64,000 nucleotides of DNA from NCBI RefSeq assembly GCF_002854065.1, contig NZ_CP024147.1; one strand, written 5' to 3'. This stretch comes from Escherichia coli (GTDB lineage: Bacteria > Pseudomonadota > Gammaproteobacteria > Enterobacterales > Enterobacteriaceae). Both the position numbers and the translations under genes were made by a program. The notes beneath the pieces are model-generated. The model searched no databases, was not told the origin of the DNA, and worked only from the letters and a program-made list of their open reading frames with translations. Positions 32,399 to 41,162 of the stretch are shown piece after piece; the stretch's first letter is position 1; each line of letters opens with the position of its first letter.

Positions 32399-32718
32399 AT
32401 AGAGCTATACGCAGAGGGTAGCACAGTGTCGGATTGCATTGGACTTTGAAGGTACTCGTTAGAGGTTCAGGGTTCAGGCTCTTCAGCGCGGTTTCATCAA
32501 TACCTGGGTTAGTGAGCAGCGGTTGTGTGGCTGCATGGTGATAAATATGGCCCAATGAACACATTTTACATTGATGAATTGAATAAATATTGGTATGAAA
32601 AATAGTGTTTCTGTATTACTGATGGGTGACAGCACTTCACTGTTCAAGTTCAGGATGATGCTTTACCACTACCATCATCAGCAGTAATAAGAGGGGCATC
32701 GCAGCCTTCTTTTTTATT

Positions 32719-33054
32719 CTACTGATACAGCCATTTTCCCGCTTCTGCTGATTCCGCAAACATCCGTACAGTTAACGGTAAACGTGTTGTTTCTACCTCT
32801 TCCCGCTTGAGCTTGAACCATCGTTGAAGCAATGGTGCAGACTCCCACGGAAGGTACAAAGACCAGTCCAGATTATCCAGGTTAATCCCAAACCTCTCTT
32901 TGTATTTCCGTATAGCGTCCTCTAAATCATCTCGTGGATAGTCGAACAAATCAGAGTCCAGTTCTAACGGAATTTCCTTCCCGTGGTCATCCTGATAACC
33001 TGGAATCTCATCACGGAACAGTGCTAAAACTTCGTCTGTGATTGTTGTTGCCAT
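32719..33054 (-). CDS. hypothetical acidic 111-aa protein (family unassigned), translationally coupled to upstream ORF
   Basis: ATG overlaps the stop of the upstream ORF as TAATG; D/E-rich product MATTITDEVLALFRDEIPGYQDDHGKEIPLELDSDL...; an alternative GTG start at 33069 is possible; not a K-12 gene I recognise at this locus. Confidence 0.5.
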   Translation of the reverse strand: MATTITDEVLALFRDEIPGYQDDHGKEIPLELDSDLFDYPRDDLEDAIRKYKERFGINLDNLDWSLYLPWESAPLLQRWFKLKREEVETTRLPLTVRMFAESAEAGKWLYQ

Positions 33055-33503
33055 TAGAAGGAAGTCCACTTAATACGGTCTTGAGGTTTGGCAATCAGAT
33101 TGTATTTTTCCTGGGTACGAGTCGAAACCCTGTAAAGACTCATCGACAGTGAAACCCAACCAATCCACGGGACCCAACGAGCGATAATTGCAGCAAGCTT
33201 ATTAGATTTCTGCATCCTTACACCCACTGGTGTATGAACAGAAATACCAAAAGGCATGCGTGCATCTCTCATCAGTATACGCGCATACTTTGAGACAACA
33301 CTTGTTCCCAGGGTTGCCCCTTGCGGCTTCGCTCTTGTACCCAGCCAAGGTTGACCAGATAAGATTGCTGCACCTGATACCGAATCAATCCCCAATTCCT
33401 TACAGAATTCTTCAAGGAATATGACGTTGAGTAGTTCTATTTTGGACAGGTTCGGGTGTCCTCTATAGAAATATGTTCCATTGCGTTCTTCGGTAGTATC
33501 CAT
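33054..33503 (-). CDS. hypothetical 149-aa protein with C-proximal hydrophobic segment (family unassigned)
   Basis: ATG preceded by GGAG at a 9-nt spacing; hydrophobic stretch LAAIIARWVPWIGWVSLSMSLY; AGA/AGG Arg codons (atypical for E. coli core genes). Confidence 0.5.
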   Translation of the reverse strand: MDTTEERNGTYFYRGHPNLSKIELLNVIFLEEFCKELGIDSVSGAAILSGQPWLGTRAKPQGATLGTSVVSKYARILMRDARMPFGISVHTPVGVRMQKSNKLAAIIARWVPWIGWVSLSMSLYRVSTRTQEKYNLIAKPQDRIKWTSF

Positions 33504-33536
33504 TTTTCAACACTCCATTGTTATATAGTGTTTCTG

Positions 33537-33629
33537 TTACTTGAAGTTGATTTCTTCGGTTGCAGCAGATGCAGAACTAGAACCAGTAAAGGCAACGAGT
33601 GTCACAGCTATCAGTGCAAAGCGTTTCAT
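33537..33629 (-). CDS. putative 30-aa small ORF with signal-peptide-like N-terminus
   Basis: ATG preceded by GAGG at a 5-nt spacing; product MKRFALIAVTLVAFTGSSSASAATEEINFK; lies 33 nt upstream of the 149-aa ORF on the same strand. Confidence 0.3.
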   Translation of the reverse strand: MKRFALIAVTLVAFTGSSSASAATEEINFK

Positions 33630-34089
33630 GTGAACCTCAAAAAGGGTGGATGCCATAATTTACTCGTTGCTTGTCGCTTCAACCATGACTTTTGATAATT
33701 TTCCCAATAGTGCTCAAAGTGAGTTAGTCGCTGAATCGAGTAATGTCAAATTTTGACCAAATAGCACCCTGTTAGTTATCTCTGGTGGTTTTTTTATTGC
33801 TTAAAATCTGGTGTAACTAATTGATATTTAATACTTTATTTGAAGGTCGGGAAAATACTGTCTTTGGTCTAAAAGAAGTTTTTTGCATGGTATTTTCAGA
33901 GATTATGAATTGCCGCATTATAGCCTAATAACGCGCATCTTTCATGACGGCAAACAATAGGGTAGTATTGACAAGCCAATTACAAATCATTAACAAAAAA
34001 TTGCTCTAAAGCATCCGTATCGCAGGACGCAAACGCATATGCAACGTGGTGGCAGACGAGCAAACCAGTAGCGCTCGAAGGAGAGGTGA

Positions 34090-35340
34090 ATGGAAAGTAA
34101 AGTAGTTGTTCCGGCACAAGGCAAGAAGATCACCCTGCAAAACGGCAAACTCAACGTTCCTGAAAATCCGATTATCCCTTACATTGAAGGTGATGGAATC
34201 GGTGTAGATGTAACCCCAGCCATGCTGAAAGTGGTCGACGCTGCAGTCGAGAAAGCCTATAAAGGTGAGCGTAAAATCTCCTGGATGGAAATTTACACCG
34301 GTGAAAAATCCACACAGGTTTATGGTCAGGACGTCTGGTTGCCTGCTGAAACTCTTGATCTGATTCGTGAATATCGCGTTGCTATTAAAGGCCCGCTGAC
34401 CACTCCGGTTGGTGGCGGTATTCGTTCTCTCAACGTTGCCCTGCGCCAGGAACTGGATCTCTACATCTGCCTGCGTCCGGTACGTTACTATCAGGGCACT
34501 CCAAGCCCGGTTAAACACCCTGAACTGACCGATATGGTTATCTTCCGTGAAAACTCGGAAGACATTTATGCGGGTATCGAATGGAAAGCTGACTCTGCCG
34601 ACGCCGAGAAAGTGATTAAATTCCTGCGTGAAGAGATGGGCGTGAAGAAAATTCGCTTCCCGGAACATTGCGGTATCGGTATTAAGCCGTGTTCTGAAGA
34701 AGGCACCAAACGTCTGGTTCGTGCAGCGATCGAATACGCAATTGCTAACGATCGTGACTCTGTGACCCTGGTGCACAAAGGCAACATCATGAAGTTCACC
34801 GAAGGCGCGTTTAAAGACTGGGGCTACCAGCTGGCGCGTGAAGAATTTGGCGGTGAACTGATCGACGGCGGCCCGTGGCTGAAAGTTAAAAACCCGAATA
34901 CCGGCAAAGAGATCGTCATTAAAGACGTGATTGCTGATGCATTCCTGCAACAGATCCTGCTGCGTCCGGCTGAATATGATGTTATCGCCTGTATGAACCT
35001 GAACGGTGACTACATTTCTGACGCCCTGGCAGCGCAGGTTGGCGGTATCGGTATCGCCCCTGGTGCAAACATCGGTGACGAATGCGCCCTGTTTGAAGCC
35101 ACCCACGGTACTGCGCCGAAATATGCCGGTCAGGACAAAGTAAACCCAGGCTCTATTATACTCTCTGCTGAGATGATGTTACGCCACATGGGTTGGACCG
35201 AAGCCGCAGACCTGATTGTTAAAGGTATGGAAGGCGCAATCAATGCGAAGACCGTAACCTATGACTTCGAACGTTTGATGGAAGGCGCTAAACTGCTGAA
35301 ATGTTCAGAGTTTGGTGATGCGATCATCAAGAATATGTAA
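34090..35340 (+). CDS. icd: isocitrate dehydrogenase (NADP)
   Basis: 416-aa product [38 protein letters not shown]...; preceded by GGAGAGG RBS. Confidence 0.97.
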
Positions 35341-35364
35341 TCACTACATGTGTTAAATATTTAA

Positions 35365-35396
35365 ACGGGCGTATAACACGCCCGTTGTTTTATTTA
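35365..35396 (+). terminator. rho-independent terminator of icd
   Basis: acgggcgt-ataac-acgcccgt hairpin (8-bp stem) followed by a T-rich run. Confidence 0.7.
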
Positions 35397-35442
35397 TGTA
35401 GATATTATTAATAGCATATCGAGCATATTTATATAAAACCCA

Positions 35443-35766
35443 TTACTTGAGCCCATACGGGCATATTTTTATAATACAACTCTTATGCAAACATTTATTT
35501 GTTATTTCGCTTTCTCCTGGAGGACACTCTTGACTGCTTTTGAGTAAACTCCATAAATTCTTGTTGAATGGTGCAATGTTATAAATAGTAATAGGATATT
35601 CTTTATCCTTAAGGATAATACCAGGCTTAACAGGTGTAAATATACTTCCAGGAGGAAGAAATATAGTAGATTGATACCAGATGATCATTTTCATATCACC
35701 CCATATGGCTGAAAAAGATATGCCGCATGTAGGTTGAATTACCGTGTCAATTACTACCCACTTCAT
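35443..35766 (-). CDS. iraM: anti-adaptor protein IraM (RpoS stabiliser)
   Basis: 107-aa product [32 protein letters not shown]... matching my recollection of IraM/YcgW; AT-rich context. Confidence 0.82.
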
Positions 35767-36461
35767 TTGTTATGTCTTATCCCACGGTATTTAATATAGT
35801 TCATTTGGATGTTCATTTCTTTATTTTGCATATGAGTATATTACCCCTTCAAAAAATAAATTAATTAAAACGATTGCTTATATAAAACAAAACTTAAAGC
35901 AAGGAATCTCAATGGATGTTAAACAAAATGAGATTTAGTGAAAACAATAAATTATTCACTTCGTTTTAGATTTGTTTAGCTATAATGTTATACATTCAAA
36001 TGACTGAACATCCTGTAATTAAAACATAGCCTTTATGCTACTTTGTGCCAATTTGCTAAACATTATGGTTGCCTTTTTATATAACGATAATAATGAATAT
36101 AAGCATGACATGAGAATAAGGTTTCAATTTTTGAGTTATATAGGAAAGGTTTAACCTGTTCCTGGCTAAAATACATATAACTGGATGATGACTAAACCAA
36201 AACACATGTGCGTTAAGTATTGAAACGGGCGTATGGCACGCCCGTTGGTTTTATAAATATATTAACCGTTATAAAATAACGTATAGAAAGTCAAGTGATC
36301 ACATTTCAAATATCAATTTGATAGTATTGGCCTGGTGATTATTTATGGGTAGCAATAAAAGGACAGTATTTATCATCCATAGGGATAGTCTCTGTACTTT
36401 TATTCCCATTATGCTAATGCCTTACTGAATTATGAAGCATTTCTTAAGCATCCAACTTAAG

Positions 36462-36866
36462 CTAGATTAATGGTTTATTATTTTCTACATCTTCAATATA
36501 TAAAAGCGTATTATCAATGGCGTAGTAACTGCGTTTGTTATGATTAACATCAGTAACCCAACGGAAAACGCCCGCGTCTGCCAGTGTTGAACAGTATTCC
36601 CGAAATGTAGATTTTCCGCAAATATGAAGCAATGCGGCCTCTTTTATTTTAGCAGGGTTCTTGGTCGTACTAACTTTTAACAGGTTCCTGGTTCCTCTTA
36701 ATAACAAAACCGTGTCATCGTGAGTAATAATTCTGATGTTATCCGTAGCCAGATAATAAATGTAATGTGCAATACGGTGATGTTTTAATTCTGAATAAAA
36801 CCAGGAGAAGTTTTGCTCTTTTCTCACTTGCTCAAACATCTTTTGAAAAACAACGACCTGATCCAT
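36462..36866 (-). CDS. ycgX: uncharacterised protein YcgX
   Basis: 134-aa ORF at the conserved position between iraM and bluR. Confidence 0.75.
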   Translation of the reverse strand: MDQVVVFQKMFEQVRKEQNFSWFYSELKHHRIAHYIYYLATDNIRIITHDDTVLLLRGTRNLLKVSTTKNPAKIKEAALLHICGKSTFREYCSTLADAGVFRWVTDVNHNKRSYYAIDNTLLYIEDVENNKPLI

Positions 36867-37086: not shown

Positions 37087-37818
37087 TTAGGGGGCATGAA
37101 AGATGACTTTATAACCTTGCTCACCCCAGTGTTGTAAAAGTTCATTTTGCCTTCTCGTTGGTGCCATGCCTGTCCAGACAATCAATGTTTGCGTCGGGAA
37201 CAGTTCCGGGCGCGGTGATTCAATGGGATCAGCAAGAACAGAAATATGCCATCCTGACAATGATAAACGCCATGCTTCCAGCCACAATCGAGCTCTCTCT
37301 TCAACATTCCACGCCATCAGAATGGCTTCTTTACCGGGCTTACGGCGCATTTCGAAAAGCGAGGCTGCTGCGTATTCAATTAGTGCGCCGTCAAACATAC
37401 TGCTCATAATGCGGGAGGTGTTGTGATCAAGCACGAGACGCTGGCGAACAGGAAGGTAAACATGATTAATCAATTGATCTACTGGGTACTCTCGACCCAG
37501 TGAAATAATTCTCGCGCGTAGTTTGGCAGGATTAGCCATACGAAGAATTGACATCATCTCTTCTTGCAGGCGGCTCCAGTCATCTTCCGTATCCTGGCTG
37601 GTGGTTTCCAGTAATGCTTTAACTTTGCCTACAGGGACGCCATTACTTATCCAACGCTTGATCTCTTCGATACGTTGTATGTCTTCTTCATCAAAGAGTC
37701 GGTGTCCGCCTTCACTGCGCTGTGGTTTTAACAAACCGTAGCGGCGTTGCCAGGCCCGGAGAGTGACAGGATTAATCCCGCAACGTTCAGCAACATCACC
37801 AATGCTGTAATAAGCCAC
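37087..37818 (-). CDS. bluR: MerR-family repressor BluR (YcgE)
   Basis: 243-aa product with N-terminal MerR HTH ([32 protein letters not shown]). Confidence 0.9.
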
Positions 37819-39784: not shown

Positions 39785-39813
39785 TGCAACAGCCTGATTA
39801 TTTGGATTTGCCC

Positions 39814-40719
39814 CTATATTTCCAGACATCTGTTATCACTTAACCCATTACAAGCCCGCTGCCGCAGATATTCCCGTGGCGAGCGATAACCCAGCGCACT
39901 ATGCGGATGCCATTCGTTATAATGCTCGAACGCCTCTGCAAGGTTCTTTGCTGCCGTTAACCCGTCTGGTTTGGGCATGATACTGATGTAGTCACGCTTT
40001 ATCGTTTTCACGAAGCTCTCTGCTATTCCGTTACTCTCCGGACTCCGCACCGCCGTGTTCTTCGGTTCAAGTCCCAACATCCGGGCGAACTGGCGTGTTT
40101 CATTAGCCCGGTAGCATGAACCATTATCCGTCAGCCACTCCACTGGAGACGACGGAAGATCGTTGCCGAAGCGGCGTTCCACCGCTCCCAGCATGACGTC
40201 CTGTACTGTTTCACTGTTGAAGCCGCCGGTAGTGACCGCCCAGTGCAGTGCCTCACGATCACAGCAGTCCAGCGCGAACGTGACACGCAGTCTCTCTCCG
40301 TTATCACAGCAGAACTCGAACCCGTCAGAGCACCATCGCTGATTGCTTTCTTTCACGGCCACTCTGCCTGTATGTGCCCGTTTCGATGGCGGTACAGCAG
40401 GTTTTCGCTCAAGCAACAGCGCATTCTAGCGCATGATCCGGTAAACACGTTTGGCATTGATCGCAGGCATACCATCAAGTTCTGCCTGTCTGCGAAGCAG
40501 CGCCCATACCCGACGATAACCATACGTGGGCAGCTCTCCGATAACATGGTGTATACGGAGAAGCACATCCGTATCATCAGTGTGACGACTGCGGCGGCCA
40601 TCCATCCAGTCATCGGTTCGTCTGAGAATGACGTGCAACTGCGCACGCGACACCCGGAGACAACGGCTGACTAAGCTTACTCCCCATCCCCGGGCAATAA
40701 GGGCGCGTGCGCTATCCAC
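39814..40719 (-). pseudogene. insD: IS2 transposase OrfB (InsD) interrupted by in-frame TAG at codon 98
   Basis: Frame [12 protein letters not shown]...AKRVYRIMR / TAG (rc of plus 40426-40428) / [20 protein letters not shown]...; canonical IS2 has Gln at this position as I recall. Confidence 0.75.
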
Positions 40720-41042
40720 TTTTTTGCCCGTCCATATTCAACGGCTTCTTTGAGGAGTTCATTTTCCATCGTTTTCTTGCCGAGCAGGCGCTGGAGTTCT
40801 TTAATCTGCTTCATGGCGGCAGCAAGTTCAGAGGCAGGAACAACCTGTTCTCCGGCGGCGACAGCAGTAAGACTTCCTTCCTGGTATTGCTTACGCCAGA
40901 GAAATAACTGGCTGGCTGCTACACCATGTTGCCGGGCAACGAGGGAGACCGTCATCCCCGGTTCAAAGCTCTGCTGAACAATTGCGATCTTTTCCTGTGT
41001 GGTACGCCGTCTGCGTTTCTCCGGCCCTAAGACATCAATCAT
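40677..41042 (-). CDS. insC: IS2 transposase OrfA (InsC)
   Basis: 121-aa product [34 protein letters not shown]... Confidence 0.9.
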
Positions 41043-41162
41043 CTGTTCTCCAATGACTAGTCTAAAAACTAGTATTAAGACTATCACTTATTTAAGTGAT
41101 ATTGGTTGTCTGGAGATTCAGGGGGCCAGTCTATTATTTAACAGGTTAGCTATGAAGTCGTT

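Follow-up and report, generated by a model that had tools for sequence, protein, structure and literature searches.

In the window, by which we mean the whole 64-kb stretch of Escherichia coli DNA analysed here, icd leads straight to iraM without a prophage at icd, as it also does in many other genomes, and ymgL, ycgX and bluR lie beyond (Table 1). iraM is a well-studied regulator of RpoS stability. The IraM protein of the window matches the NCBIfam model NF007393 over its full length with 169 bits (cutoff 121); its precomputed database label is PF11183 (PmrD-like), and our own Pfam scan returned no match at E<=0.01. The G+C content of the interval between the two repeat copies that are termed L and R in the following is 27-35%, as compared to 50-54% in icd. 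The earlier note on this DNA had described the interval as an AT-rich segment of roughly 860 bp with iraM as its sole gene. The segment is indeed AT-rich and iraM is the only sizeable gene in it, but RefSeq also annotates the 14-codon ORF ymgK.

Table 1. Features of the icd-iraM-ycgX locus (window coordinates)
Feature	Position	Strand	Basis or remark
icd (isocitrate dehydrogenase)	34090-35340	+	416-aa ORF; RefSeq annotation of matching genomes
Left copy (L), icd 3' UTR and predicted working icd terminator	35346-35396	+	sequence, repeat search
L hairpin, AACGGGCGT-ATAAC-ACGCCCGTT, then GTTTTATTT	35364-35386	+	terminator-like score, folding
Inserted AT-rich segment, present or absent as one unit	35397-36203		found in 3,872 genomes; 1,037 lack it and have one repeat copy
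iraM, anti-adaptor stabilising RpoS	35443-35766	-	NCBIfam NF007393
ymgK, 14-codon ORF within the iraM upstream region	36019-36063	-	RefSeq annotation
Right copy (R), putative relic of icd 3' UTR and terminator	36204-36258	+	sequence, repeat search
R hairpin, AACGGGCGT-ATGGC-ACGCCCGTT, stem intact in the window	36224-36246	+	-15.3 kcal/mol
Flank common to filled and empty forms	36259-36461		runs on from the single copy in iraM-less genomes
ymgL	36299-36409	-	inside the 36259-36461 flank
ycgX (DUF1398), far-side neighbour	36462-36866	-	Pfam PF07166, 1e-47
bluR	37087-37818	-	

The 3' flank of icd, a brief 3' UTR followed by a hairpin and a T-run, exists in two paralogous copies, L and R. A direct-repeat search aligns 35349-35391 with 36209-36251 over 43 nt without gaps at 86% identity and a start-to-start spacing of 860 bp, and when a 2-nt CG indel is allowed the match reaches left to 'acatgtg' at 35346 and 36204, which in L begins 5 nt past the icd stop codon. 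The second-best direct repeat in the 1.6-kb interval comprises 25 nt at 76%. The sequences which the earlier note had placed at 35346-35396 and 36204-36258 are present there, and its estimate of about 85% identity agrees with ours. It had also assigned to both copies the same hairpin with differing loops, which holds true (ATAAC in L, ATGGC in R), but the stem of this hairpin, AACGGGCGT-N5-ACGCCCGTT, measures 9 bp and not 8, around a loop of 5 nt. The hairpin occurs at these two sites only in the 64-kb window (35364-35386 and 36224-36246), where the expected count is 0 (100 shuffles). Besides the stem, the similarity of L and R covers the unpaired UTR (catgtg..ttaa.tattga) and the T-run. Terminator scoring of the window finds both copies terminator-like on the + strand, and L folds with -17 kcal/mol (z -4.5; minus strand -15.4), R with -15.3 kcal/mol on both strands. 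Both copies thus have the G+C-rich hairpin and T-run of a rho-independent terminator; conservation or compensation of the stem, however, is found on the icd side and fails for R. A search of Rfam gave chance-level matches only.

Among 5,426 complete E. coli genomes the whole icd-iraM-ycgX arrangement is present in 3,852 and the interior of the segment (35398-36203) in 3,872, whereas 1,037 genomes lack iraM and carry exactly one copy of the repeat, in the order icd or prophage-displaced icdC, copy, ymgL-ycgX. One copy and not two is what the earlier note's reading of the locus had led it to look for in genomes devoid of iraM, and GN02050, one of them, has an icd-ycgX interval shortened by exactly 860 bp relative to the window. 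The single-copy group takes in the type strain ATCC 11775 and Nissle 1917, both of phylogroup B2. In GN02050 and Nissle the single copy is L-like up to the T-run and then continues with the right-hand flank of R, and neither of the two single-copy classes that were read (GN02050/Nissle; AR_0089/AVS0193) carries R-specific bases. The flank itself (36259-36461) shows 92.9% identity between the window and a B2 genome. L and R now bound a presence/absence polymorphism of iraM and give it exact boundaries, about 71% of complete E. coli genomes having the gene and 19% being cleanly without it. A further 19 of the 5,426 genomes have at this site a 6.3-kb island whose iraM is diverged. In O157:H7 the whole iraM-ycgX stretch is lost, MIN9 has an IS1-linked deletion that extends from 46 nt past L to pdeG, and in CUWW06, the closest relative of the window, an IS1 has inserted into the iraM segment. 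IS1 offers a second way of losing iraM.

Per E. coli genome, the L sequence has a median of 1 and a maximum of 4 locations, and every copy read adjoins the 3' end of icd or icdC, or iraM. The repeat is therefore not a widespread dispersed terminator family unrelated to icd, a finding which the earlier note had named as one that would speak against its reading; a REP/ERIC-like family was rejected on the same counts, there being 2 copies in 64 kb and at most 4 places per genome. A hairpin scan of public genomes returned only 8 unrelated matches (beta-proteobacterial and Aeromonad), which is weak evidence as the scan missed E. coli itself: it reported no Escherichia genome, yet the E. coli type strain contains the exact hairpin pattern.

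On the icd side the hairpin is well preserved. We read 15 icd-side or single copies from six E. coli lineages, E. albertii, E. marmotae, Escherichia sp. 93.0816, phage 4A7 and the O157 prophage. Fourteen of them have the same hairpin and loop, and the remaining one, in the E. marmotae-like contig L038, has a fully compensated stem, AACGGGAGC-GTAAC-GCTCCCGTT. The phage 21 copy has the same stem as the fourteen. The L stretch of BKQWHE, of EC42405 and of the GN02050-class single copy is identical to the copy in the attP of phages 21 and 4A7 and to the O157 prophage copy, and the L of the window is one base off the phage 21/4A7 attP copy, just before the hairpin. Judged from this pattern of sequence conservation, L is predicted to be the working icd terminator, with a hairpin as expected under selection. 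All R copies, on the other hand, have a CG insertion and taaGtatt, both of which are missing from the icd-side copies. The stem of R is intact and its loop changed in the window and in BKQWHE (AACGGGCGT-ATGGC-ACGCCCGTT), one pair is broken in K-12 (AACGGACGT-GTGGC-ACGGCCGTT; -10.2 kcal/mol, z -1.06), a mismatch affects the 3' arm in IAI39 (...ACGCCCATT) and the 5' arm in N96 (AACGGGCAT...), and in EC42405 there is no R hairpin, the copy having been lost. Because the stem changes in K-12, N96 and IAI39 are uncompensated and the copy is lost in EC42405, R has the appearance of a decaying relic rather than of a maintained terminator.

The last ~165 bp of icd form the known attachment region of e14 and phage 21. 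About 165 bp of the icd 3' end, together with the same terminator and followed by int, are present in phage 21, phage 4A7 and the O157:H7 prophage, and the phage-borne icd homology stops at '...cccgttgtttt', that is, at the same base at which L ends in the window. Three junction types start just past the terminator hairpin and inside the short T-run: the phage-21 type 'atgatgatgtaaaatcttcccc', a type 'ctaacggttatcaaaa' shared by N96, EC42405 and a pair of E. marmotae-type islands, and the iraM type 'atttatgtRgatattattaatagc'. In L038, which belongs to that pair, an island with a ParA-like gene follows the icd terminator, and an integrase and an excisionase are encoded further downstream at the same locus. 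IAI39 has three stacked copies (icd, copy, sit-prophage, icdC, copy, iraM, copy, ycgX), showing that the icd site stacks successive elements. In K-12 the order behind e14 is mcrA, icdC, iraM, ymgK, ymgL, ycgX, and since iraM stands beyond icdC it lies outside e14. The published placement of iraM 'on the e14 prophage' (PMC4045071) is corrected by this order, which puts the gene beyond the e14 end in K-12, and by the presence of iraM in many prophage-free icd loci. The R-specific string has 28 matches in IMG/VR, all of them prophage predictions that run on through icdC-iraM-R-ymgL, and a free phage or element with an R-type copy was not found among the 28. Twenty-six of these predictions stop exactly at the start of ycgX and therefore represent host DNA filed as viral; prophage predictors routinely overrun into the host DNA of this locus.

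Phage 21 and e14 integrate at icd and bring a substitute icd 3' end and terminator (PMC6379469; PMC12803456), and their integration leaves an icdC (icd') pseudogene copy (Hill et al. 1989 and Wang et al. 1997, both via PMC12803456; summarised in PMC6379469). The iraM segment resembles these prophages in its locus, in the direct repeats from a displaced icd 3' end that flank it, in the homology that ends at the T-run of L and in the single-copy, unoccupied site of related genomes, and in K-12 and IAI39 the iraM scar is stacked directly behind such a prophage. It differs from them in that its repeat is only about 50 bp long and starts after the stop codon (13 nt before the stop in N96), whereas the crossover of e14 and phage 21 lies ~165 bp inside icd, where the prophage-displaced icdC copies start and R does not. 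Moreover, the insert measures 0.8 kb and has no int, xis or phage structural genes left, nor an integrase or excisionase by its icd-side junction, unlike the O157 prophage and phage 4A7, in which int is present. We class the iraM segment as a decayed member of a wider icd-integrated group and not as a prophage of the 21/e14 type. Insertion behind icd is an ordinary kind of event, and the understanding of integration at this gene is unchanged by the iraM scar.

A phage affinity is also evident in the genes themselves. The IraM family comprises 24 clusters and is found in Escherichia only. Where the context of phage and prophage relatives was examined, the gene is antisense and situated between Q (or stx2AB) and the nanS-p/lysis genes of lambdoid and Stx prophages; these relatives include the gene downstream of stx2B in Stx2 phages (71% nt identity) and proteins of a stx-bearing prophage (70% aa) and of an E. 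albertii prophage (62% aa). Similarity between chromosomal and phage iraM DNA is restricted to the coding sequence. As to the far-side neighbour, the YcgX homologue of E. albertii belongs to a lambdoid prophage, where lysis genes and Nu1 flank it, and that of Escherichia sp. E10V10 lies in the fliT-yedF region. Like the lambdoid 'morons' downstream of Q/pR' (stx2AB, for example), iraM is AT-rich and self-contained and has its own promoter region, but different from these the chromosomal gene is without adjoining phage late genes. An IraM homologue, iraL, is carried on a genomic island of the UPEC strain CFT073 (Hryckowian et al. 2014, PMC4045071); the same paper reports that CFT073 lacks iraM and that the presence of iraM varies among isolates. 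iraL is thus likewise a strain-variable IraM homologue, situated however at the potB island and not at icd.

We consider it likely that a phage-derived element integrated at the icd 3' end, duplicating the terminator, and later decayed to iraM. Such an element would have entered with a substitute icd end and terminator, like phage 21 and e14, and a recombinase presumably carried out the insertion. L would then be the element-borne copy, which remained on the icd side as the working terminator, and R the former host copy, which was displaced downstream to its place beside ymgL-ycgX and would now be decaying. Nearly all of the element would subsequently have been lost except for iraM and its regulatory region, which the host may have co-opted for RpoS control. 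The earlier note had read the locus as an integration scar with iraM as cargo, and this reading has gained from the single-copy empty sites, the IraM relatives in prophages, the second island described below and the coincidence of the L edge with the end of the attP homology. On this account iraM would have a concrete origin as a lambdoid-phage accessory gene that became stranded at the icd attachment hot spot, and the insertion of phage-derived DNA would account for many E. coli strains being without it. Our literature search on an iraM bracketed by a duplicated icd terminator found no paper.

The 6.3-kb island has the order icd, a 455-aa ORF, IS fragments, trkG, an iraM allele (79% nt identity), a ymgB-like gene, ycgX, and in N96 it is likewise bracketed by hairpin copies. 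In N96 the right copy matches the icd end over 66 nt (82%, E 5e-14); the match starts with ATCAAGAATATGT, the final 13 nt of the ORF, and takes in UTR and hairpin. This copy also has taaGtatt in common with R. Further icd coding similarity next to the right-hand repeat, for which the earlier note had suggested to search, is therefore found in N96 but not at the R of the window itself, where upstream similarity to icd coding sequence is at chance level in local, anchored-global and tblastn comparisons. The diverged block of this second haplotype reaches from the icd stop codon into ycgX, its identity with the window being 79% in iraM, 71% in the iraM upstream region, 58-66% in the flank between R and ycgX, 89% in ycgX and 98% in bluR; within the inserted segment, homology is found at 35398-35771 and 35795-36160. 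Although its divergence far exceeds that between B2 and K-12, the second haplotype keeps iraM, copy, flank and ycgX in this order. No integrase, excisionase or other recombination gene is present in the 6.3-kb island or in the 0.8-kb segment, which holds only iraM and ymgK. At the spot equivalent to L, N96 has a different hairpin and T-run, gcccctctacgaaggggcagttttt, similar to the hairpin after stx2B (gcccctctccggaggggcttttt), and homology between the window and N96 starts just past both T-runs, which suggests that the window form could derive from the larger island by short-homology deletion. The hairpin located 3' of the diverged N96 iraM (gcccctctacgaaggggc and T-run; L033 9690-9724) resembles the one that an Stx2 phage has between stx2B and the iraM-like gene (L012 5955-5985) and may be a remnant of a phage context. 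As a separate observation, the sequence that adjoins R, or the single copy, on the right (taaccgttataaaataacgtatcaaaag; L001 2025-2150, window 36259-36300) is similar to 'ctaacggttatcaaaattttatcaaaac', the arm at the left end of the islands in N96 and E. marmotae; an old element arm may stand at the start of the ymgL-ycgX block, or else the N96 and E. marmotae elements may mimic the flank.

Could the two copies have arisen without integration of an element at icd? The alternative raised in the earlier note, that the right copy is simply a recycled terminator, which would serve ymgL-ycgX or insulate iraM and resemble L by convergence of terminators, agrees with the terminator-like score and the -15.3 kcal/mol fold on both strands of R in the window, and also with the same position relative to ymgL/ycgX being occupied by the single copy of iraM-less genomes. 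Convergence on a hairpin, however, leaves aside that the similarity of L and R extends into the unpaired UTR and the T-run, that the right copy of N96 holds icd codons, that R has uncompensated breaks in its stem in three lineages and is missing from EC42405, and that the hairpin is not dispersed but found at no more than 4 places per genome and 2 in the window. We regard this explanation as hardly credible, R sharing non-hairpin UTR with L and eroding in several lineages. A transposon or insertion sequence with target-site duplication was rejected as well: the duplication amounts to ~50 bp (about 110 bp in N96) where 2-14 bp would be expected, a repeat search found that inverted repeats do not border the insert, and the list of its ORFs contains no transposase.

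The segment might instead have come by ordinary homologous or short-homology recombination or by import, on a donor fragment that included an icd-flank copy, with no site-specific event at all. This would be in keeping with there being no recombinase left, with the sharp drops of identity at the ends of the second haplotype, which resemble recombination tracts, and with the left junction of the window at the T-run and its N96 equivalent gcccctctacgaaggggcagttttt, which are compatible with a short-homology deletion that joined T-runs. It leaves the first icd-flank duplicate unexplained, however, so that an ancestral insertion at icd would still be needed, and it is at odds with three unrelated junction types within the terminator T-run, which all start just after the hairpin and therefore point to a preferred recombination site. 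For these reasons we think ordinary recombination improbable as an account of the locus, and we retain integration of a phage-derived element as our preferred reading. A much bolder view of the same junctions would be that recombination is still active at the T-run of the icd terminator, a site separate from the 21/e14 site within icd and used by at least three element families, at which the iraM cassette could be removed and re-inserted in trans by the integrases of resident icd prophages. If this were so, prophage carriage would toggle a PhoP-controlled input into RpoS stability; we hold it to be very unlikely.

But did the iraM-less genomes lose the segment or did they never have it? In our opinion the balance tilts towards loss, the B2-type genomes having probably been freed of the segment by recombination between L and R. 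The opposite polarity, in which the single-copy form is ancestral and the segment entered after the split of B2, bringing R with it or displacing the host copy, requires no deletion. It would fit with the lack of any R-specific base in either single-copy class, and with the requirement that a deletion crossover fall within the last ~10 nt of the homology; in the lineage of the window the divergence of R from the single copy (11.6%) compared with that of the flank (7.4%, p 0.36) is consistent with R being an in-place descendant of the single copy. In K-12, however, R differs from the single copy far more than the flank does (18.6% versus 5.1%, p 0.005). IAI39, a member of phylogroup F, the sister group of B2, has the filled form with iraM present, and the same succession of iraM, copy, flank and ycgX recurs in the much more diverged second haplotype, whose right copy has the taaGtatt of R. 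Finally, the search of IMG/VR yielded no free element with an R-type copy that could have brought it in. Late entry of the segment into an ancestrally empty site therefore appears doubtful to us, and L x R recombination is the route by which we would explain the clean absence of iraM. The outgroups give no clean ancestral state because in E. albertii, E. marmotae and Escherichia sp. 93.0816 the icd flanks, of which 5.5 kb were read, contain other prophage or island remnants directly following icd; in Citrobacter there is no recognisable hairpin copy.

Two further insertions were observed in the window at some distance from the iraM segment. At 32400-33870 an insertion of ~1.5 kb in the 5' end of rluE contains ORFs for a DUF1493 protein (32719-33069, minus strand) and a STM2901-family protein (33054-33503, minus strand); the N-terminus of RluE is replaced, and a remnant of the original N-terminal coding sequence (MRQFIISENTMQKTSF...) is left at 33817-33918. 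The same DUF1493/STM2901-family pair is also found between icd and rluE in IAI39. Downstream of bluF, a stretch of about 1.33 kb at 39805-41132 is absent from N96 and EC42405 and represents an IS3-family insertion sequence, as it encodes ORFs with HTH_Tnp_1 and rve domains.
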